Assembly: GCA_963811435.1 (NCBI GenBank)
Contig: CAWERD010000007.1
Span: 1,079,096 to 1,143,095, forward strand
Length of the DNA: 64,000 nt
DNA from: Vicinamibacterales bacterium
GTDB lineage: Bacteria > Acidobacteriota > Vicinamibacteria > Vicinamibacterales > JAMQPK01
Direction: 5' to 3'
In this document: one piece after another, positions 727-59,919 of the stretch
Position numbering within the stretch: the first letter of the stretch is position 1
How the letters are laid out: the number at the start of each line of letters is the position of its first letter
The notes under the pieces: model-generated
Told to the model about the DNA's origin: nothing
Seen by the model: the letters and a program-made list of their open reading frames with translations, nothing else
Databases searched by the model: none
Position numbers and translations under genes: made by a program

Positions 727-2369
727 ATGCAGCGGTTCCACATTCCGGGTTCCGGGTTCCCGATTCTGGTTCTGGGTTCTCGCGCCCCTGTTCCTCGTTG
801 CGACCGCAGGTGCCAGCGCAACCCGCACAGCAGCCTGATGCCCGGTTCCTCGTCATCCCCTTCGAAAATCCCGGCTCACGAAACGCGCGTGTACTGGCTG
901 GGCGAAGCATCGGCCATGTTGCTGGCCGACAACCTGAACGCGCAGGGCAGCCGCGCGTATACGCGCGACGAGCGGCTCGATGCATTCGAGCAGCTTCAGC
1001 TTCCGCCGGTGGCCTCGCTGAGCCACGCGACCGTCATTCGGCTCGGCCAGGTCGTCGGCGCCACTCACGTCGTCATCGGATCGTTCACGCTGAGCGGCGG
1101 ACGGATCTCGGTGCGGGCGCAGAACATCAGGCTCGACAGCGGCCGCATGGAGAAGCGAGAGTCGTCGAGTCGGGCGCGCTCGAAGATCTGTTCGCGATCT
1201 TCGAGCGCGTCAGCCGACGCCTCTCTGGTGCAAGCGGGCCGGGCGGGCCTGCCGGACGACCCGCGTTGCCGGTGTTCGAGAGCTACATCAAGGGGCTGCT
1301 GGCGACCGCCACGACCGCGAAGGTCGGCTATCTCGAAGCGGCGCTCAAGCTCGATCCCGGCTTCGATCGCGCGCGTCTGGCGTTGTGGGCGGTGAACCAG
1401 GACAAGGGCAACGGTCAGGCCGCGCTGCGTGGCGGCCGCCGCAGTGCCCGAGACATCGCCGCTCTACGCGCGCGCCCGATTCAACGTCGCGTTGTCGCTT
1501 GATCCAGCTGAAGCGGCTGGACGATGCGTTCGCGACACTGAGAACGATGGCGGATCGCACGCCGATCGGCGACGCTGATGAATAACCTCGGCGTCATCCA
1601 GATGCGGCGTCCCGTCACGCCGCAGACAGGGCAGCGCCACGTATTACTTCAATCAGGCGCTCAAGCTCGATCAGGACGATCCCGACTACTACTTCAATCT
1701 CGGATACGCGTACTGGGCCGAAAAGGATGCGCAGTGGGCGATTTTCTGGCTGCGCGAGACGGTGCGCCGGAAGCCCGCCGACGGCGAGGCGCACGCCGTG
1801 CTTGCGGCCGCGCTGCAGGCGACCGGTTCAATCGCTGAGGCCGCGCGCGAGCGCGAGCTCGCGACGCAACTGTCATCGACGTATGCGGAGTGGGCGAAGA
1901 AACCGACGGGGATCGAGCCCATCCCTCGTGGATTGGAACGGATCAAGCCGTCATTGGACATCTCCCCGATGCGCCGCGCCGATTACGCGATTGCCGCAAC
2001 CGGGCAGCGCGAGCAGAGGGAGCTGGCCGCGTTTCATCTGGATCGCGGACGGCGGTTCTTCGAGCAGGGGAACAATACGGAAGCGGTGACCGAGCTCGGG
2101 CCGCGCCATCTACCTCGCGCCGTACGAGGCGCAGGCGCACCTGTTGATCGGCCGAATCTATCTGCGCACCGGCCAGACGCCTGCGGCGATCGATGCGTTC
2201 AAGATTGCGCTCTGGAGCCAGGAATCGGCCGAGGGCCGAATCGCGCTCGCGCAGGCATACCTGCAGACCAAGGACGAAGCGGCCGCGCGACGAGGCTCTG
2301 GAACGCGCGCTCGTTCTCGACCCAGGTTCTACCGAAGCCAGGGAGCTCTTGACCAGGCTCAAGCCATGA
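727..2369 (+). CDS. TolB-N-like plus TPR repeat protein, reading frame broken at least 5 times
   Basis: A continuous protein can be tiled from ORFs 580..1395, 798..1502, 1385..1585, 1762..2352 and 2144..2503. Segments include FLVIPFENPG..VYWLGEASAMLLADNL, KGLLATATTAKVGYLEAALKLDPGFDRARLALW, YYFNLGYAYWAEKDAQWAIFWLRETVRRKPADGEAHAVLAAAL and AQAHLLIGRIYLRTGQTPAAIDAFKIAL. It ends LTRLKP then TGA at 2367..2369. These are typical TPR helices. Confidence 0.6.
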
Positions 2370-39885: not shown

Positions 39886-39898
39886 AACGTCTAAAATA

Positions 39899-39989
39899 GG
39901 CGCAACTGAAGTTGCGCCCTACCGGACGCAACGCCGCCACTTCGAGGGTGGGGTTGTGCCAGCGCGGTAGGGCGCAACTTTCGTTGCGC
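39899..39989. repeat. REPIN-like inverted doublet of GTAG-headed hairpins (GGCGCAAC stem family)
   Basis: 39899..39925 is ggcgcaactgaagttgcgccctaccgg, in reverse orientation. 39965..39989 is cggtagggcgcaactttcgttgcgc, in forward orientation. Confidence 0.8.
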
Positions 39990-40002
39990 TGAGGCCTTTT
40001 TC

Positions 40003-42687: not shown

Positions 42688-43402
42688 ATGATGAGATTGT
42701 CTGTCGCGGCGGTGTGCAGTGTGTTGATTTTCAGCGCCACGGCGTTTGCGCAGACGCCGGCGCCGCCTCCCGCGGCAGCCGTACCGCCGCCGCAAACGCA
42801 GGCGCCCTTGAGAATGGCTTTCCTCGATCTGCAGCGCGATTGCCGCCGAATCGACCGAGGGGAAGTCGGCCAGCGGCAAGGTGCAGGCCCTCACGCAGAA
42901 GAAGACCGCCGAGCTCGCCGACAAGACCAAGGCCCTGAAGGCGAATCAGGAGAAGCTGCAGCAGGGGGGCGCGGTGCTGAACGATGCGGCGCGCGCGCAG
43001 ACGCAGCGGGAAATCGATCGCCTCACCGTCGAAATCGATCGCTTCCAGGAAGATGCCAACGCCGAGGTGCAGCAGCTGCAACAGGAGCTGCAGGGTGATT
43101 TCCAGGAGAAGCTGCGGCCGGTCGTCGACGCGCTCGTTAAAGAGCTGGCGATCGGGTTGCTCTTCAGCGCCGGCGATGCGGGCGCGATCTTACGTCGATC
43201 CGTCGCTCGACATCACCGGCGAAGTGATCAAGCGCTTCGACTCGGGCAAGTACCGACGGCGGCCAAGCCCGCAGCGCCTCCGACGGCGAAGCCCGCGCCG
43301 GCTGCCCCCTCGACGGCCAAGCCCGCGGTGCCGCCCTCGGTCACGCCTCCGGCGACACCGCCTGCGACACCGAAACCCGCTCCGGCGCCCGCTAAACCCT
43401 GA
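42688..43402 (+). CDS. skp: OmpH/Skp-like periplasmic chaperone with Pro/Ala-rich tail (at least 3 frameshifts)
   Basis: Signal peptide MMRLSVAAVCSVLIFSATAFAQ. FLDLQRIAAESTEGKSASGKVQALTQKKTAELADKTKALKANQEKLQ is reconstructed across frames. It sits downstream of bamA. Confidence 0.7.
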
Positions 43403-43405
43403 TGC

Positions 43406-43544
43406 GAGGGCTAAAGGCTAAGGGCTAAGGGCTGAGGGCTGAGAAGTGTGGAGGGACCTGCCTCAACCCTCACTTTAGCCCTGAGCCCTGAGCCCTTAGC
43501 CCTAAGCCCTTAGCCCTTAGCCCTAAGCCCTAAGCCCTAAGCCC
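43406..43544. repeat. Inverted arrays of GGGCTNA heptamers (second locus)
   Basis: The left arm is gagggctaaaggctaagggctaagggctgagggctgag. The right arm is agccctgagccctgagcccttagccctaagcccttagcccttagccctaagccctaagccctaagccc. Confidence 0.85.
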
Positions 43545-43566
43545 TTCTCAGGGTATTCTTTCCGCA

Positions 43567-45780: not shown

Positions 45781-46714
45781 ATGAGCACTCGAGTTGCCGT
45801 TATCGGCGTTGGAGCGTTAGGTCGGCATCACGCGCGGATCCTCGCGACGCTGCCTGATGTGGAGCTCGTCGGCCGTCGTCGATATCAAGGAAGCGCGCGC
45901 TCGCGAGATCGGCAGCCTCGTCAACGCGCCGTGGGTGACGAACGCGGCCGAGATGCACGGCCGGGTCGACGCCGTGACGGTCGCCGTGCCGACCGAATCT
46001 CACTTGAACGTGGCGCTGCCGTTCCTGCAGCGCGGAATCGCGGTGCTCGTCGAGAAACCGCTCGCGCGCGATGCCGGCGAGGCACGGCAGATGATGGACG
46101 CGGCGTCGGCGTCCGGCGCCGTGCTTGGCGTAGGTCACACCGAGCGGTACAACCCGGCCGTCGCCGCGGTACGGCCGCTTCTCGATCACCCGCGATTCAT
46201 CGAAGTGCACCGTCTGGGCACGTTTCCCGATCGAAGCCTCGATATCGATGTCGTGTTCGACCTGATGATTCACGACCTCGACGTCGTGCTGTCGATTGTG
46301 CCGTCCGAAGTCGTCGCAGTAGAGGCTGTCGGCGTCGCGGTGTTGACACCCAAGCCAGACATCGCCAACGCCCGGCTGAAGTTTGCGTCCGGGTGTATTG
46401 CGAATATCACGGCAAGCCGGATTTATAACGATCGTGTCCGCAAGATCCGGATCTTTCAGCGCGACGCGTACCTGTCGGTCGATTACGCGGCGCAGGAAGT
46501 GGAGCGCTGGCGGCTCGTCAAAGGCAACGGCGCGATGCCGGTCATCGACGGCGGAAAGCTCGAAGTCGTGCAGGAAGAGCCGCTCAAGCGCGAGCTCGCC
46601 GACTTCGTGGCGGCGGTTCGCGAGAAGCGGTCCCCAGGCGTGACAGGCGCCGATGGTTTACGCGCGATACAGTTAGCGCAGAGAATAACTGAGGAAATGA
46701 AGAGGCAGGGCTAA
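45781..46714 (+). CDS. Gfo/Idh/MocA-family NAD(P)-dependent oxidoreductase (frameshift near 45872)
   Basis: MSTRVAVIGVGALGRHHARIL (Rossmann), then ORF 45857..46714 with AVLVEKPLARD and GVGHTERYNP. The stop codon TAA lies inside a REP hairpin loop. Confidence 0.75.
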
Positions 46715-46784
46715 AGCCCTGCGCTACCGCACAGCTCGACGATGTCGGTATCGGCGTATCGGTAGCGCAGCCCTTTAGGGCTGC
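46705..46784. repeat. REPIN-like inverted doublet (GCAGGGC-TAAA-GCCCTGC stem family)
   Basis: 46705..46729 is gcagggctaaagccctgcgctaccg. 46760..46784 is cggtagcgcagccctttagggctgc. The spacer contains cggtatcggcgtatcggtag. Confidence 0.85.
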
Positions 46785-46795
46785 CCAAACAGTTC

Positions 46796-48244: not shown

Positions 48245-49141
48245 ATGGCGGCCTCACTCGACGATCTCACCTCCAAAGTCGAAGCAGGGGAGCGCCTGTC
48301 GGATGAGGACATCGCGGCGCTCGGCTCGAGCCGCGACATCATCATGCTCGGCATGCTCGCGAGCATCGTTCGCCGCAAGCTGCACGGGACGGATGTGACC
48401 TATGTGCGAGTGGCCGACCTGAAGGTCGAGTCCAAGGCCGACCTCAAGGTCGGCACTACGGCAGACGCGAAAACTCCGGGCGAATTCCGAATCTTCTACA
48501 CCCCCCACACGATGAACGACTGCATCGAGGTCGTGGCGAAGGCACGCGAACTGGCGGGGACGACGCCGCTGTCTGCCTTCTGCCTGTATGAGCTCAGCAA
48601 GTTGCCAGAAGGATTGCCGGTTGTGCTCGCCGCACTGAAGAAGGAAGGCCTCGAACTGGTGGCACAGGCGCCTTTCGATCGCCTGGCCGATCCCGAGCGC
48701 ATGCTCGAGGCGCTGACCGATGCGGGACTGCAGCTGGCCCGCCTGACGATGAACGAAACGCCCGAACGCGAGTGGACGGCCGTGTGCCGCGACGTGGCGG
48801 CCCTTCAAACCACGCTTGGCTCGATACGCGTTTTTGCGCCGTTGCCGCGCAAGATCGACGCAACTCAGCCGACGACTGGTTATGCAGACGTGAAGCGCGT
48901 GGCGATATCGCGACTGCTGGCAGATCCGGTCGAGACTATTCAGGTCGACTGGGAACTGTATGGCCCGAAGCTGGCGCAAGTCGCGCTGACGTTTGGCGCC
49001 GACGACATCGACTCGGTGTCGGCAGAAGACGATCTTTCGCAGGGGCGGCGGCGATCGCCGCTCGAAGAGATCCGCCGCAGCATTCACGCCGCCGGTTTCG
49101 AGGCTGTCGAGCGTGACGGGCGTTTTCAGAGGCGCAGCTGA
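48245..49141 (+). CDS. MqnC/MqnE(CofH)-like paralog lacking the radical SAM CxxxCxxC cluster motif
   Basis: 298 aa. The ends align by eye with the intact enzyme at 50069..51271: KVEAGERLSDEDIAAL vs KIEDGERIDAADALAL, GTDVTYV vs RTVTYI, QVALTFGADDIDSV vs QLSLAYGANDMGSV, IHAAGFEAVERD vs VEDAGFVPKRR. The NYTNVCxxxCxFC segment is absent. Confidence 0.6.
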   Translation: MAASLDDLTSKVEAGERLSDEDIAALGSSRDIIMLGMLASIVRRKLHGTDVTYVRVADLKVESKADLKVGTTADAKTPGEFRIFYTPHTMNDCIEVVAKARELAGTTPLSAFCLYELSKLPEGLPVVLAALKKEGLELVAQAPFDRLADPERMLEALTDAGLQLARLTMNETPEREWTAVCRDVAALQTTLGSIRVFAPLPRKIDATQPTTGYADVKRVAISRLLADPVETIQVDWELYGPKLAQVALTFGADDIDSVSAEDDLSQGRRRSPLEEIRRSIHAAGFEAVERDGRFQRRS

Positions 49142-49190: not shown

Positions 49191-49985
49191 ATGCCGATTC
49201 GACTCGGAGCTGTCAGCTATCTCAATACGCGCCCGCTTGTGCACGGGCTCGAACATCAGACAGATCGGTTCAGCCTGCGGTTCGACGTGCCGGCGAAATG
49301 TGCCGAGCTCCTGCACGCGAACGACGTCGATCTCGGGCTGATCCCGTCCATCGAGTATCCGGGGCACGACTATCGAATCGTCCCGGGCCTTTCGATTGCG
49401 TCCGATGGTCCGGTGGCGTCTGTGGCCATGTTCACGAAAGTGTCGATGGAGGACATCCGCTCGGTTGCGCTGGACACGAGCTCCAGGACGTCGATCGCGC
49501 TCCTGCGCGTGCTCTGCGCGCGCTGGTTCGACATCGAGCCACGGGAAGTCGGCATGCCGCCGGATCTCACCCGCATGCTCGGGGAATGCGACGCGGCGCT
49601 CGTGATCGGAGACAACGCGCTCTTCCTCGATCATGAGGCGTTGGGTGTGGAGAAGATCGATTTGGGCGAGGAGTGGGTCGGGATGACCGGTCTCCCGTTC
49701 GTCTATGCGTTCTGGGCGGGACGGCCGGGCATCGTCGGTGCGGCCGATACGGCGGCTCTGCAGCAGGCGCGTGACAGAGGCGTTACCGCAACCGCTACAA
49801 TTGGCCGGGAGTTGTTTCCCGACAGCCCGGAGAAGGCCGCCCGTGCCGACCGCTACCTTCGTGAAAATGTGAAGTACGCTCTAGGCGAGCCCGAGGTAGC
49901 AGGATTGCGGCGGTTTTACGAGCTGGCGGAAGAAATTGGCGCGCTGCCTCAGGCAGAGCCAGTGAGGTTCTACGAACAGGGCTAA
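49191..49985 (+). CDS. mqnA: Chorismate dehydratase MqnA (futalosine pathway)
   Basis: 264 aa with IRLGAVSYLNTRPLVHGL and DVDLGLIPSIEY. It lacks the CPNDT motif of MqnD. The stop TAA lies in a REP loop. Confidence 0.85.
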   Translation: MPIRLGAVSYLNTRPLVHGLEHQTDRFSLRFDVPAKCAELLHANDVDLGLIPSIEYPGHDYRIVPGLSIASDGPVASVAMFTKVSMEDIRSVALDTSSRTSIALLRVLCARWFDIEPREVGMPPDLTRMLGECDAALVIGDNALFLDHEALGVEKIDLGEEWVGMTGLPFVYAFWAGRPGIVGAADTAALQQARDRGVTATATIGRELFPDSPEKAARADRYLRENVKYALGEPEVAGLRRFYELAEEIGALPQAEPVRFYEQG

Positions 49986-50061
49986 AGCCCTGTTCCACCG
50001 TATCGGTGGCTAAAGCCCTGTTCTCTTCACCGATGTGGGTGGCACAGCCCTTTAGGGCTGT
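49975..50061. repeat. REP-like cluster with co-varied stem (ACAGGGC/GCCCTGT)
   Basis: aacagggctaaagccctgtt (49975..49994), ccaccgtatcggtgg, a partial copy ctaaagccctgtt, then the inverted copy acagccctttagggctgt (50044..50061). Confidence 0.8.
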
Positions 50062-52490: not shown

Positions 52491-53375
52491 GCGCCGTGCT
52501 GTCGGAACATGGGAAGCTGACCACTGTTCTCGTCAAACATGCGCGCGATGCATTTGTGAGCGCCGATCGGATTTCGGCGCAGTGGACGCACTTGAACTTT
52601 TCCGCTCCACCCGACCTCGGCAGAGCCATCGCCGAGTACCGATGCCTTCCTCGAAATTCTCGCCGGTTGTGGCGCAGACATCGTGTTCCTGCCGCAGGAC
52701 GACACTGTGACGCTCGATTCCATTTACACGCGCGACGCGTCGATCCTGAGCGCGCGTGGTGTCATTCTGGCCAGCATGGGAAAGAAACAACGCTCTGACG
52801 AACCGGCAGTGCAGGAAGTGGTACTACGGCGCCGAGGCTGGCCGGTTGCTGGGACCGTTCATTTACCGGGGCAGATTGAGGGCGGCGATCTCGTCTGGCT
52901 CGACTCGCGGACGCTTGCGGTGGGCCTGGGCGCCCGAACGAACCCTGTCGGCATTCGTCAGCTGAGAATCCTGCTCGGCGATTCGTTCGATGATGTCATC
53001 GTCGTGCCGTTGCCGGACGATCCGGGTCAACACGACGTCATGCACCTCATGTCGCTCATCAGCACGGTAGATCGCGACCTCGCGGTTGTTTACCTGCGGC
53101 TGCTTCCGGAGAATTTCCAACGCATGCTGAAGGATCGCGGCTATCGCCTCGTGGATGTGCCTGACGAAGAATTCGAGACGATGGGGACAAACGTGCTCGC
53201 GCTCGGGCCGGGCGATTGCGTGATGCTGGATGGCAATCCAAAAACACGCGCGGCGCTCGAGCAGGCCGGCGCGCGCGTGCAGGTTTATGACGGTCGCGAG
53301 ATCAGCCTGAAAGGCGGTGGCGGGCCGACGTGCCTCACGAGGCCGCTCGCGCGGGTGGGGGATGCTGAATTGTGA
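52487..53375 (+). CDS. Amidinotransferase-fold enzyme (DDAH / arginine deiminase-like), frameshift near 52640
   Basis: LTTVLVKHARDAF.., then ORF 52683..53375 with DSIYTRDASIL, IEGGDLVWLD, MHLMSLIS and the catalytic-Cys motif GGGGPTCLTRPL. Confidence 0.7.
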
Positions 53376-53542
53376 GATTGGAAGATTGGTAGATTGGAAG
53401 ATTGTTGAAGATTGAAGATTGAGGATTGAGTTTTAGTGCCTCTGTAGTTTTAGTGCCTCTGTAGCGCAGGGCTTTAGCCCTGCCTCAGTAGGGTATTTTG
53501 GGATTCGGGATTGATAGCGATAGGGATTAGGGACAGGATTGG
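53373..53542. repeat. Composite repeat block: GATTGGAA-type array, 17-bp tandem duplication, REP hairpin, GGGATT-type array
   Basis: TGAGATTGGAAGATTGGTAGATTGGAAGATTGTTGAAGATTGAAGATTGAGGATTGAG (53373..53430). ttttagtgcctctgtag occurs twice (53431..53464). gtagcgcagggctttagccctgc (53461..53483). gggtattttgggattcgggattgatagcgatagggattagggacaggattgg (53491..53542). Confidence 0.85.
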
Positions 53543-53600
53543 CGGACGATCGCTCGAACGGCTGCGAGGCGGTCGCGTCAGAACACATGGCGCGGCGTGA

Positions 53601-53969
53601 GCAGCGGAATGTCGGTGTCGCCACGGTTCGACGCTGGGGGCGGTCACGTGGGGGTTGTTGTTCCTGCTCGCCGAGGATGTCCAACGGAATCTCATCCACA
53701 AGGTTGCTTTGGCGCTAAAACCCTCCGGCCGCTTCCTCTTCACGTCGCCCGCACAGTCTTGCACCTGGCCGGACGCGCTGACCGGCCGTGAATCGCGGTC
53801 GCTTGGCACCGACAGTTACAAGGCTCTTCTTTCGGAAGCGTGCCTGGTCCTCGTTGGTGAACACACAGACGAAGGGGATAACCACTACTATGAAGCTGCC
53901 AAACAGCAGTGTGCGACGACACAGACAAAACAGAGCAGCAGTGTCAACCCGGCTGCTTTCTGGAATTAG
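53601..53969 (+). pseudogene. Remnant of a class I SAM-dependent methyltransferase (C-terminal part only)
   Basis: The open frame from 53601 reads ..VTWGLLFLLAEDVQRNLIHKVALALKPSGRFLFTSP.., which is post-motif-II and motif III of Methyltransf_11/25-type enzymes. The N-terminal GxGxG region has no room, since repeats and the previous gene occupy it. Confidence 0.45.
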
Positions 53970-58595: not shown

Positions 58596-59783
58596 GTGCC
58601 CCCATTGTTTTCCCGAGTCATCGTGATCGTGCTCGACAGCGTCGGTGCCGGCGCGCTCCCCGATGCCCGCGACTACGGTGATGAGGGCAGCAATACCCTC
58701 GGCAACATCGCCCGCACCGTCGGTCTGCGCGTTCCGACGCTTCGCAGCCTGGGGCTCGATCGCATCGTCGATATCGGCGGAGAGGTGAGCGTCCAGGTGC
58801 CGCACGCCGCGATCGGCCGTATGGCGGAAATGTCGGCAGGGAAGGATTCGGTGACCGGTCACTGGGAGATGATGGGCATCGTGCTCGACCGCGCGTTCCC
58901 CGTATTTCCAGATGGCTTCCCCAGGGAACTGATTGACGCGTTCGAGCAGGGAGTCGGGCGAGGTTCGCTCGGCAACTACGCCGCGTCGGGCACGACCATC
59001 ATCGACGACCTGGGGCCCGAGCACATGCGGACGGGAAAGCCGATTGTCTACACATCGGCGGACAGCGTGTTTCAGATCGCCGCTCACGAGGACGTGATTC
59101 CGATTGAAGAGCAGTACCGGATCAACGCCGTGGCCTTCGAGCTCGCGGTTCGCGGTTACGGACTCGGGCGTGTGATTGCCCGGCCGTTTGCCGGAAAGCC
59201 GGGAAGCTTCACGCGAACGGCCAATCGCAGGGACTTTGCGATGATGCCGACTTCCGAAACGGTGCTCGACCGGCTCGCGGCGGCGCACGTTGCGGTCGTT
59301 GCCATCGGCAAGATCGAGGATCTGTTTGCGGGCCGTGGCATTACGCGAGCGATTCATACAGCGAGCGACGACGAAGGCGTCGACGTCATCTCGTCGGAGA
59401 TGGCATCGACCCCGCGCGGGCTGATCTTCGCGAACCTGGTCGACTTCGACACACAATACGGTCACCGCAACAGCGTGGACGGGTATGCGGCCAACCTCGA
59501 GCGCTTCGACGCACGGCTCAAGGACTTGCTGCCGCGGTTGCGTGACGACGATCTGATGGTGATTACCGCCGACCACGGCAACGATCCCACGACGCCGAGC
59601 ACCGATCACTCGCGCGAGCATGTGCCGCTGCTGGTGACAGGACCGCATGTGACCTCTGGCGTCAATCTCGGCACGCGCACGACGTTTGCCGACCTGGGAC
59701 AAACCGTGGCGGAAAATTTCGGGGTGGGTGCGATGAAATACGGCAAGAGCTTTTTGCCGGAAATACGGCACGGGCAGGGCTAA
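58596..59783 (+). CDS. deoB: Phosphopentomutase
   Basis: 395 aa with VIVLDSVGAGALPDA, GKDSVTGHWEMMG, FANLVDFDTQYGHRN and ITADHGNDPT. The stop TAA lies in a REP loop. Confidence 0.9.
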   Translation: MPPLFSRVIVIVLDSVGAGALPDARDYGDEGSNTLGNIARTVGLRVPTLRSLGLDRIVDIGGEVSVQVPHAAIGRMAEMSAGKDSVTGHWEMMGIVLDRAFPVFPDGFPRELIDAFEQGVGRGSLGNYAASGTTIIDDLGPEHMRTGKPIVYTSADSVFQIAAHEDVIPIEEQYRINAVAFELAVRGYGLGRVIARPFAGKPGSFTRTANRRDFAMMPTSETVLDRLAAAHVAVVAIGKIEDLFAGRGITRAIHTASDDEGVDVISSEMASTPRGLIFANLVDFDTQYGHRNSVDGYAANLERFDARLKDLLPRLRDDDLMVITADHGNDPTTPSTDHSREHVPLLVTGPHVTSGVNLGTRTTFADLGQTVAENFGVGAMKYGKSFLPEIRHGQG

Positions 59784-59911
59784 AGCCCTGCGCCATCGGA
59801 TAGGCGGGGCTAGAGCCCTGCGCCGCCGGATAGGCAGGGCTAAAGCCCTGCGCTACCGATGCCGCATTACCGATGCACACTAGTACCGGTAGCGCAGCCC
59901 TTTAGGGCTGC
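59774..59911. repeat. REP-like array: three tandem reverse-orientation copies plus one forward copy
   Basis: 59774..59799 is gcagggctaaagccctgcgccatcgg. 59804..59829 is gcggggctagagccctgcgccgccgg. 59834..59858 is gcagggctaaagccctgcgctaccg. 59886..59911 is ccggtagcgcagccctttagggctgc. Confidence 0.9.
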
Positions 59912-59919
59912 CAATACAT

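Follow-up and report, generated by a model that had tools for sequence, protein, structure and literature searches.

GTAG-type REP elements (repetitive extragenic palindromes) have been reported before to supply stop codons to genes (Di Nocera, De Gregorio & Rocco 2013, BMC Genomics 14:522). The families described there are short G+C-rich hairpins with a GTAG head, sometimes GTGG as in GTAG-20 of O. terrae, which form head-to-head homo- and heterodimers as well as clusters, are associated with RAYTs (REP-associated tyrosine transposases, Y1 HUH enzymes) and lie mostly downstream of ORFs, between genes that run in the same direction or converge. All of these traits are shared by the elements described here. 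There is also a likeness to the REP/BIME and TnpA-REP system of E. coli (Nunvar 2010; Messing 2012), with a palindrome and a 5' GTAG in two types that alternate in orientation, and both systems have RAYT genes bracketed by inverted REPs, which in loci of the E. coli type lie very near the stop codon of the RAYT or directly behind it (PMC2817692). A further resemblance is to the REPINs (Bertels & Rainey), in which two inverted REPs constitute the replicating unit, which is vertically inherited and depends on a single-copy RAYT.

The differences are equally clear. The stem and loop GCAGGGC-TTTA-GCCCTGC, its GCAGCCC partner and a host within the Vicinamibacterales are not named in the accessible text of Di Nocera et al. 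2013, and, unlike in the families described there, it is the loop (TAA or TGA) opposite the GTAG strand that gives the stop here, with X-Q-G as the uniform tail. The stepwise replacement of a native stop documented below likewise goes beyond that text. In contrast to the bulged REP of E. coli, the stem pairs perfectly over 7 bp and closes a loop of 4 nt, and unlike E. coli RAYTs the RAYT ORFs terminate inside the REP loop, as read from sequence. Where REPINs are pairs of inverted REPs, the dimers here are often heterodimers with GGG/CCC-swapped stems, which makes a single long hairpin less likely than two local hairpins plus a head-head helix, and singlets and 3+1 clusters also occur. The placement of a REP on a gene end with its loop read as the stop is real, and largely an expected side-effect of REPs settling beside genes. 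Small repeats that lie in operon junctions or coding sequence and give host genes codons and start or stop signals are also found among the MIRUs of Mycobacterium and the Rickettsia palindromic elements (RPEs); MIRUs are direct-repeat minisatellites with small ORFs of their own, and RPEs are in-frame insertions within genes. Neither is known to have a GTAG-headed hairpin or an association with RAYTs.

The stretch of DNA analysed here, referred to as the window, is 64 kb long and contains the exact 16-mer CAGGGCTAAAGCCCTG on the + strand at 46706-46721, 49977-49992 and 59775-59790, with further exact copies at 59835-59850 (+) and 53482-53467 (-). When up to two mismatches are allowed the number of matches rises to 11, against 0.01 expected in shuffles. 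As the first-pass annotation had claimed, three unrelated genes end in this identical string: an oxidoreductase, MqnA and DeoB, all with ...QG as their C-terminus, take their stop codons from the loop TAAs at 46712-46714, 49983-49985 and 59781-59783, respectively. Its view that the last codons and the stop are repeat-derived was confirmed as well, the repeat being a true REP and the tails being absent from most MqnA and DeoB orthologs; at mqnA, where the stem is 9 bp, the number of such codons is three instead of two (GAA CAG GGC, E-Q-G). Each of the three sites consists of more than one hairpin, either as a head-to-head dimer or as a 3+1 cluster, and the whole gap to the next ATG (46796, 50069 and 59920) is taken up by it. 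Altogether five clusters with about 11 hairpins were found in the 64 kb, all within 39.9-59.9 kb and every one positioned after a gene end.

Table 1. Genes and REP features in the window.
Feature	Position	Strand	Description
GFO_IDH_MocA oxidoreductase	45857..46714	+	Pfam
MqnA (VitK2_biosynth)	49191..49985	+	Pfam
Phosphopentomutase DeoB (Metalloenzyme)	58596..59783	+	Pfam; PDB 3M8W, E 2.6e-125
Dimer 1, left REP	46704..46729	- (GTAG strand)	+ strand reads GG-GCAGGGC-TAAA-GCCCTGC-G-CTAC-CG; stem 46705-46711 / 46716-46722, loop 46712-46715
Dimer 1, spacer	46730..46759		heads GCTACCG / CGGTAGC predicted to pair across as a central helix
Dimer 1, right REP	46760..46786	+	CG-GTAG-C-GCAGCCC-TTTA-GGGCTGC-CC
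Dimer 2, left REP	49974..50000	-	GAACAGGGC-TAAA-GCCCTGTTC-CACCG; GTGG-head subtype, 9-bp stem (GAACAGGGC/GCCCTGTTC)
Dimer 2, partial internal duplicate of left REP	50006..50024	-	GGTGGCTAAAGCCCTGTTC
Dimer 2, right REP	50037..50061	+	GG-GTGG-C-ACAGCCC-TTTA-GGGCTGT
Cluster 3, left-type REPs	59773..59858	-	three direct copies, 30-nt period; loops TAAA, TAGA, TAAA
Cluster 3, right REP	59887..59912	+	CGGTAGC-GCAGCCC-TTTA-GGGCTGC-C
Singlet REP	53461..53483	+	GTAG-C-GCAGGGC-TTTA-GCCCTGC; convergent intergenic gap; hairpin 53466-53483
Second REP subfamily, head-to-head dimer	39898..39992		GGCGCAAC-TGAA-GTTGCGCC-CTACCGG ... CGGTAGGGCGCAAC-TTTC-GTTGCGC

The hairpins are GTAG-type REP elements of Vicinamibacterales (Acidobacteriota), arranged in head-to-head dimers or BIME-like clusters. 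With a REP defined as a palindrome of 20-40 bp able to form a stable stem-loop, the elements have G+C-rich stems of 7 bp (9 bp at mqnA) and 4-nt loops; single hairpins have predicted folds of -14 to -15 kcal/mol (z -3.5) and dimers of -45 to -85 kcal/mol (z -4 to -5.9), the predicted dimer fold being two 7-bp hairpins joined by a head-head helix. A head of the GTAG type, CGGTAGCGC or CGGTGGCAC, adjoins every hairpin in the window, where CTAC or CCAC comes after the hairpin; of at least 139 copies from many phyla (L001-L120), nearly all have CTAC in this place. Two head-to-head heterodimers (46704-46786 and 49974-50061) and the 3+1 cluster (59773-59912) represent the compound arrangements. A 24-mer of the repeat is present on 79 soil-metagenome contigs, and about 45 of 69 metagenome copies have the end of a same-strand ORF within 250 nt upstream, as counted with a crude GC-frame ORF filter. 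Read antisense to GTAG, the conserved loop of 4 nt is T-R-A-A, which places a TAA or TGA stop 6-8 nt inside the element, while the GTAG strand has one TAG from the head and another from the loop; conservation of the T-R-A-A loop extends over the different stem subtypes and more than 10 phyla.

Other classes of element were considered as well. Rfam covariance models gave no match at the gathering threshold anywhere in the window. The hairpins are not intrinsic terminators because they have no U-tract; no terminator-like site was found on the + strand at the three junctions, and the sole terminator-like match that coincides with a REP (46722-46705) belongs to the minus strand. When compared with TA-targeting MITEs (IS630/Tc1-like), the dimers have inverted arms, and a possible TA..TA occurs only in the mqnA copy of the window and not in the related loci L121, L202 and L203.

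No RAYT gene was found in the 64-kb window, so the link to RAYTs rests on related genomes. The ORFs at 1691..2206 (-) of L040 and 798..1280 (+) of L124 match NCBIfam NF047646 (REP_Tyr_transpos) with 96.8 and 102.8 bits, above the cutoff of 80 bits, and also match Pfam Y1_Tnp. The L040 gene is bracketed by the same hairpin at 1684-1699 (-) and 2223-2238 (+), the arrangement of a REPtron, in which a RAYT is flanked by inverted REP copies, and in L124 a copy lies just upstream of the gene (741-764). The two genes end ...KQG and ...WQG inside a REP loop, and more RAYT-like ORFs adjoin a REP in L024, L062, L051 and L183. This points to the RAYT as the putative mobilising enzyme of these REPs.

The individual sites differ in their details. 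The right REP of dimer 1 has the stem of the left one with GGG and CCC swapped, which makes the pair a heterodimer (predicted MFE -46.2 kcal/mol, z -5.1), and a UbiD-family gene starts 9 nt past it. The partial duplicate within dimer 2 is missing from the corresponding dimer in L121, L202 and L203; the right REP of this dimer is followed by CTAGGAG and then by the ATG of a radical-SAM MqnE/C-like gene. In cluster 3 the first of the left-type copies supplies the DeoB stop, and the ATG of an HD-domain phosphohydrolase is 7 nt beyond the right REP. An ORF of 111 aa (53474..53809, -) that ends in the loop of the singlet REP looks non-coding, so that no real stop is supplied there. The loop of the second-subfamily dimer lies 24 nt past the stop of the upstream gene.

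The takeover of a native stop can be followed at the mqnA end. In L122 the site is empty (TAT TAG CAG ATG, a gap of 3 nt), whereas in L205 (TAC TAG CAGGGCTGAAGCCCTG) and in L203 and L204 (TAx TAA CAGGGCTGAAGCCCTGTT) the native stop is retained and abuts the REP. It has been lost to CAA in L121 (TAT CAA CAG GGC TAA) and to GAA in L202 and the window (TAx GAA CAG GGY TAA). At least two REP subtypes, GCAGGGC in L205 and ACAGGGC in L203/L204, begin at the identical nucleotide after the 'TA' of mqnA. In L203 a frameshift, possibly an assembly error, interrupts mqnA 34 codons before its end, and the P0007 contigs have gaps of REP size at both junctions. Since several relatives keep the native stop directly before the hairpin, the QG tail of MqnA appears to have arisen by later loss of that stop and not by replacement at insertion. 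The direction of change was presumably one of loss, with loss and regain each taking a single substitution.

Alignment with orthologs indicates a lineage-specific QG tail for two of the three proteins. MqnA has its native end ...FY in 103 of 120 orthologs and FY-X-Q-G/D in 12, and DeoB ends in the native SFLxxLH type (...DLH-type) in about 50 of 120 and in ...QG or ...QS in 32. The structure of the B. cereus phosphopentomutase (PDB 3M8W) stops 3-4 residues past the SFL motif, which places the QG tail of DeoB outside the fold. By contrast, ...QG outnumbers every other tail in the 120 closest orthologs of the oxidoreductase (45 cases, besides 16 one-step variants; QGS in 9 and the EINRSLAQ type in 22), and this tail must therefore be old rather than narrowly lineage-specific. 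A full REP is present at that spot in all three ...QG oxidoreductase loci read at the DNA level (window, L204 and L205). Fossil tails are found too: the oxidoreductase of L206/L207 ends aga cag gga tcc tga (RQGS) with no hairpin, and DeoB of L203 has kept an RQG tail out of a REP that has since decayed (agg caa ggg tga ggctgc), while a dimer that is still intact lies 12 nt beyond. QG tails are scattered over NJ trees (26 Fitch changes for DeoB), which hints at repeated gain and loss, a hint only as these trees, built from orthologs that are 80-90% identical, have poor resolution.

An unbiased view of placement comes from soil metagenomes, in which 69 unique copies of the 24-mer could be used. 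About 9% of these copies supply the stop through the loop TAA, corresponding to six genes supported by Pfam or NCBIfam (L125, L135, L163, L176, L179 and the RAYT gene of L183). Three of nine loop-stop ORFs (L171, L184 and L187) have no Pfam hit and look antisense, frames of a kind that the filter on GC by codon position lets pass, and these doubtful cases lower the rate from 13% to about 9%. The GTAG-derived TAG is the stop of an opposite-strand gene in 4 of 50 copies (L141, L151 and L164 with Pfam support, L130 without), and the loop TAG serves as a stop in one copy (L131). As a whole the copies spread over 0-80 nt past stop codons, most of those that supply no stop lying at 0-70 nt, and about 15 of the 69, or about a fifth, are on a stop codon or within 12 nt of one. 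ORFs that read into the REP stop at the loop in nine cases and later in three (binomial P ~0.004 vs 1/3, computed before removal of the three doubtful ORFs). Among the cross-phylum matches listed, loop-stop use is not evident outside Vicinamibacterales-like genomes, so generality is not claimed. These results do not support, as stated, either of the two origins first suggested for the gene ends: precise insertion into 3' ends that replaces native termini does not fit the spread of copies after stops, the small share that use the loop TAA or the mqnA relatives with a native stop right before the hairpin, and strong selection for a hairpin in the last codons does not fit the RQGS and RQG tails whose hairpin is missing or decayed.

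The probable explanation is that these are GTAG-type REPs of a RAYT-linked family whose placement reflects insertion beside stops and purifying selection, with no dedicated mechanism or function. REP copies would accumulate in the first bases after stop codons, especially in tight operon junctions such as mqnA-mqnE with its native gap of 3 nt, and an insertion would survive only where both flanking genes stay intact. If a hairpin adjoins the native stop, or overlaps it, in a suitable register, a gene that loses this stop would gain just 2-3 extra residues (X-Q-G), and insertion one or two codons upstream of it would come at an equally low cost. Because losing the native stop would add merely two or three residues, the loop stop could then take over as the stop of the gene. 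The different subtypes at the same nucleotide and the scattered tails are less comfortable for chance and selection, and hint at site preference or turnover.

A possible but unlikely alternative is that the placement is adaptive and that a hairpin on or within the stop is maintained for its control of the gene upstream, which it may exert by stalling terminating ribosomes or by protecting the mRNA of the upstream cistron from 3'-5' decay and uncoupling it from the downstream one. REPs in E. coli that lie <=15 nt from an upstream stop provide the model for this, those <16 nt away causing down-regulation (Liang, Rudd and Deutscher 2015, Mol Cell 58:431, as presented in PMC12306157). REPs of this translation-attenuating kind are defined by such spacing together with ribosome stalling or tmRNA tagging and a lower yield of the upstream protein. 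The three sites in the window, at 0 nt, are the extreme case of such spacing, although in E. coli, according to the same secondary account, the REP follows the stop, whereas here the stop is in the loop. A ribosome terminating at the loop stop would have to melt the hairpin, and mRNA stabilisation or attenuation of translation by stop-overlapping REPs is possible. The fifth of copies on or near a stop, the occupation of entire operon junctions by dimers with stable predicted folds, and the REP at the oxidoreductase end in three divergent lineages (window, L204 and L205) with differing loop and stem subtypes can all be read in favour of a regulatory role. However, QG tails have outlasted their hairpins in L206/L207 and in DeoB of L203, L121 has lost both hairpins of the oxidoreductase site, L122 has none at mqnA, and other relatives fill the same junctions with unrelated repeats (GATTGG arrays and GGATCT arrays). 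The lack of a U-tract also speaks against such a role, and mismatches give no sign of stem selection at the RNA level (G-U vs A-C, 3 vs 7, n=16, too few cases).

Targeted insertion, in which the enzyme integrates the REP at a short target that stop codons contain, such as the position following TA or TAR, so that the loop stop would be in frame by geometry (TAR-CAG-GGC-TAA), is improbable. It would explain why the hairpin at mqnA begins with the third base of the retained stop in two subtypes (TAG-CAGGGC in L205, TAA-CAGGGC in L203/L204) and why TAG or TGA directly precedes CAGGGC in L126 and L167; the TAG GAG ATG after the dimer in the window also resembles the native TAG CAG ATG and might reflect a TA duplication. 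This right-flank 'duplication' is absent in L121, L202 and L203, however, and stop-REP offsets in the metagenome are spread (-9, -10, -11, -12, -14, -17, -20 ... -83) with no single register. TA is moreover rare outside stop codons in a genome of 63% G+C, so copies surviving at TA would look no different under selection alone. Enzymes of the IS200/IS605 type, and by extension RAYTs, are not known to make target duplications, which also counts against targeting.

Selection for the stop as such, and not recognition by the enzyme, could be what conserves the T-R-A-A loop. That it is more than a feature for recognition or stability and serves as a built-in 'safe landing' stop, closing frames from both sides together with the TAG of the head and the TAG of the other-strand loop, is a doubtful reading. 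If true, REPs could colonise and re-colonise the very ends of genes, and termination in the loop could couple to hairpin refolding and, through this, to how stable the upstream cistron is or how the next one is translated. Coincidence, with QG as a native C-terminus that merely resembles the repeat, would accommodate the frequency of ...QG among the oxidoreductase orthologs (45 plus 16 one-step variants of 120), but it is very improbable and largely refuted by the MqnA and DeoB orthologs, most of which have no QG, by the full REP at each of the three ...QG oxidoreductase loci read, and by the expectation of 0.01 for the 16-mer in the window.

With insertion beside stops and purifying selection as the favoured reading, the finding documents a RAYT-associated REP family in the Vicinamibacterales, a lineage that is abundant in soil but has received little study, and provides a stepwise case of a selfish repeat rewriting C-termini, from native stop to abutting hairpin, stop loss, loop stop and fossil tail. 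X-Q-G tails (also R-S-A, S-A-G-L and ...R) in the predicted proteins of these genomes are evolutionary repeat artefacts and not functional motifs, and such tails can be used as markers of past REP occupancy. The sites with 0-nt spacing are natural test cases for a possible tuning of translation by REPs near stops.

Exact copies of the CAGGGCTAAAGCCCTG string lie on the + strand at 46706, 49977 and 59775, and further ones at 59835 (+) and 53482-53467 (-). Allowing two mismatches at most, the window holds 11 matches against 0.01 expected from shuffles. At the first three copies the TAA of the repeat loop closes a domain-supported ORF (see the table), and therefore three unrelated proteins terminate in QG-stop within the repeat, which confirms what the first-pass annotation had proposed.

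Coordinates and sequences of the features discussed (L121, L122 and L202-L205, relatives' loci; L131-L164, metagenome-derived loci)
Feature	Locus	Position	Strand	Sequence or remark
GFO/IDH/MocA oxidoreductase ORF	window	45857..46714	+	closed by loop TAA at 46712
MqnA ORF (PF02621)	window	49191..49985	+	closed by loop TAA at 49983
Phosphopentomutase (DeoB) ORF (PF01676; PDB 3M8W, E 2.6e-125)	window	58596..59783	+	closed by loop TAA at 59781
Singlet REP	window	53461-53483		
Second-subfamily REP head-to-head dimer	window	39898-39992		GGCGCAAC-TGAA-GTTGCGCC-CTACCGG ... CGGTAGGGCGCAAC-TTTC-GTTGCGC
mqnA end	L122			TTT TAT TAG CAG ATG; empty site, 3-nt gap
mqnA end	L205			TAC TAG CAGGGCTGAAGCCCTGC; native stop retained, REP abutting
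mqnA end	L203, L204			TAx TAA CAGGGCTGAAGCCCTGTT; native stop retained, its last bases are stem bases
mqnA end	L121			TAT CAA CAG GGC TAA; native stop gone
mqnA end	L202, window			TAx GAA CAG GGY TAA; native stop gone
Gene approaching REP from head side	L131	3879-4685	-	
Gene approaching REP from head side	L141	1047-2498	+	
Gene approaching REP from head side	L151	859-1446	-	
Gene approaching REP from head side	L164	2323-3258	-	

The sites are composite elements of a left and a right unit with their heads facing each other; each unit combines a hairpin of 7-9 bp with a head of GTAG or GTGG. On the + strand the left unit reads (G)GCAGGGC-TAAA-GCCCTGC-G-CTAC-CG and the right unit CG-GTAG-C-GCAGCCC-TTTA-GGGCTGC, and a compensated exchange of GGG and CCC distinguishes the two stems. 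At mqnA the element belongs to a subtype (GAACAGGGC...GCCCTGTTC-CACCG, partner CGGTGGC-ACAGCCC...GGGCTGT). At deoB three copies follow one another in the same orientation with a 30-nt period, together with one inverted copy. By the terminology of Di Nocera and colleagues (2013, PMC3733652), such elements are head-to-head heterodimers of GTAG REPs. They occupy the whole gap to the next gene's ATG (46796, 50069 and 59920), and the predicted RNA fold consists of two local hairpins and a head-to-head helix (-45 to -85 kcal/mol, z -4 to -5.9). No U-tract was found 3' of the hairpins on the + strand, and an Rfam search of the window gave no match. In the stop-donating orientation the loop is nearly always TAAA or TGAA, whatever the stem subtype. 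The loop of the second-subfamily dimer lies 24 nt past the upstream gene's stop, and this dimer is kept in L121 (about 781).

The window repeat is a RAYT-associated REP. A tblastn search with an E. coli RAYT sequence placed an ORF beside the hairpin in 6 of 7 matched loci, and ORFs in L040, a Vicinamibacterales MAG (1691..2206, -), and in L124 (798..1280, +) matched the NCBIfam equivalog NF047646 'REP-associated tyrosine transposase' with 96.8 and 102.8 bits (cutoff 80) as well as Pfam Y1_Tnp. Inverted copies of this hairpin flank the L040 gene on both sides, and both ORFs terminate in the REP loop with the tails KQG and WQG. A partial RAYT gene in L183 likewise terminates in the loop of its flanking REP; within the window no RAYT gene was found. 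The hairpin with its CTAC head occurs in genomes from many phyla, which implies either one very widespread RAYT/REP lineage or strong constraint on the hairpin. Among the matches listed (L001-L120), the identical 16-nt hairpin with the CTAC head was seen in MAGs assigned to Acidobacteriota, Thermodesulfobacteriota, Verrucomicrobiota, Brocadiales, Nostocales/Dolichospermum, Nitrospinota, Elusimicrobiota, WOR-3, Zixibacteria and other groups, often adjoining RAYT-like ORFs. A loop-stop effect beyond Vicinamibacterales-like genomes was not evident among the cross-phylum matches listed.

Close homologs carry Vicinamibacterales or Acidobacteria annotation, and L121 shows synteny with window 39122-59955 (90-97% identity), its alignment being interrupted exactly at the repeat sites. 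At mqnA, the relatives form a series of empty, stop-kept and stop-lost junctions, and the QG tail therefore arose by loss of the native stop before an already resident REP, if, as we infer, the change runs in that direction. The REP loop stop is in frame three codons past the native stop, and the GAA codon extends the stem to 9 bp. The L203 mqnA carries a frameshift 34 codons upstream of its end (about 1410), probably a long-read assembly indel; the frameshifted call traverses the REP dimer to a TAG in the right REP loop and so illustrates how the right REP can close a second frame. At the deoB end, L202 has a native KELH terminus followed by GATTGG-type arrays. In L203 the terminal RQG stems from a REP that has decayed (agg caa ggg tga ggctgc), and an intact dimer lies 12 nt beyond it. 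The window's EIR-HG-QG resembles an old tail extended by a newer one, and a CoxM-like gene in the metagenome locus L176 has the same layering (ARQG-LG-QG).

Among orthologs, QG tails are mostly absent in MqnA and DeoB and are the commonest type in the oxidoreductase. MqnA ends in RFY in 103/120 orthologs and in FY-(E/Q/G)-Q-(G/D) in 12/120. DeoB tails are of the SFLxDLH type in about 50/120 and (I/L/V)RQG or RQS in 32/120; the remainder include RLA, RSA and GSA, which we suspect derive from other REP subtypes. The solved B. cereus phosphopentomutase ends 3-4 residues past the SFL motif, and the DeoB QG tail therefore lies outside the fold. In the oxidoreductase, (K/Q)(R/K)QG leads (45/120), with QGS in 9/120, one-step variants in 7/120 and a second group ending EINRSLAQ. 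The DNA of the window, of L204 (a singlet with a TAAA loop) and of L205 (ACAGGGC/GTGG subtype with a TGAA loop) has a REP at this end. The RQGS of L206 and L207 (aga cag gga tcc tga, without a hairpin) is a fossil tail; in L121 both hairpins are gone, and the protein ends in KEDTGIDR.

Other repeats were observed at these and neighbouring junctions. In relatives, GATTGG-type arrays take the place that REPs have in the window at the 3' junction of deoB, a hotspot shared by several repeat families. REP-free oxidoreductase-UbiD junctions hold GGATCT-type arrays in L122 (7463-7589) and AATCTAGA-type arrays in L206 (1990-2088). In the window, 7-mer arrays of AGGGCTA (x4.9, 43407-43440) and AGCCCTA (x9.9, 43477-43545) in opposite orientations together make up an extended, imperfect palindrome between genes, at an L121 alignment break (43360-43553). 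Arrays of the 7-8-mers GATTGGAA/GATTGAAG lie at window 53369-53464, where a 17-mer (AGTTTTAGTGCCTCTGT x2) directly precedes the singlet REP; arrays of this GATTGG type also occur in L121 (14160-14240 and 20630-20700) and L202 (11170-11370). The ORF between UbiD and MqnA (window 48245-49141; L122 9038-9964; 298-310 aa) has the CofH/MqnC C-terminal region as its sole Pfam match, with no Pfam match to a radical-SAM domain.

The frequency of stop donation was estimated with the 24-mer CAGGGCTAAAGCCCTGCGCTACCG, a probe uninformative about upstream sequence, which was found on 79 metagenome contigs. By a crude ORF filter the loop is the stop in 9 of 69 usable unique copies; other copies have stops at -10, -10, -11, -12, -14, -17, -20, -22, -23 ... 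-83 nt, and only 3 ORFs continue beyond the loop. Six of the nine have Pfam/NCBIfam support (amidohydrolase, DUF3810 protein, UDG-family protein, two CoxM-like, RAYT), and the other three, which appear antisense and lack such support, were rejected as genes. On the opposite strand, the TAG of GTAG closes four apparently real genes, three with Pfam matches (M28 peptidase, prepilin peptidase, PdxA) and one, in L130, without. Genes approaching from the head side end in this TAG (tail R) or in a loop TAG (tail SAGL), the latter closing a methyltransferase gene. Overall, about one-sixth of copies supply a stop codon; for dimers in this orientation the share is about half.

The data fit a three-part model in which REPs would settle directly after stop codons, a position reported for REPs generally, by Di Nocera and co-authors among others; at very tight junctions only insertions leaving both genes intact would survive; and the built-in loop stop would make takeover nearly neutral. 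Strong selection for a hairpin in the last codons, one of the two possibilities raised at first pass, is argued against by the fossil tails, the loss of the L121 hairpins and the unrelated repeats filling the same junctions. These observations also make it doubtful that the hairpin has an adaptive role, be it translation attenuation, by analogy with Liang et al. 2015, or stabilisation of the upstream mRNA; a link between REPs near stops and translation control is already in the literature. Some site preference is suggested by two REP subtypes that share one start position behind the mqnA 'TA' and by QG tails scattered over the trees. Targeted insertion itself seems quite improbable. Both alternatives, adaptive role and targeting, are compatible with the three-part model. 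Donation of stop codons by GTAG REPs was already described in 2013 by Di Nocera and colleagues; what is new is this REP family and its host, the loop-donated stop that gives a uniform X-Q-G tail, the stepwise mqnA series, and RAYT genes that terminate in their own REP.
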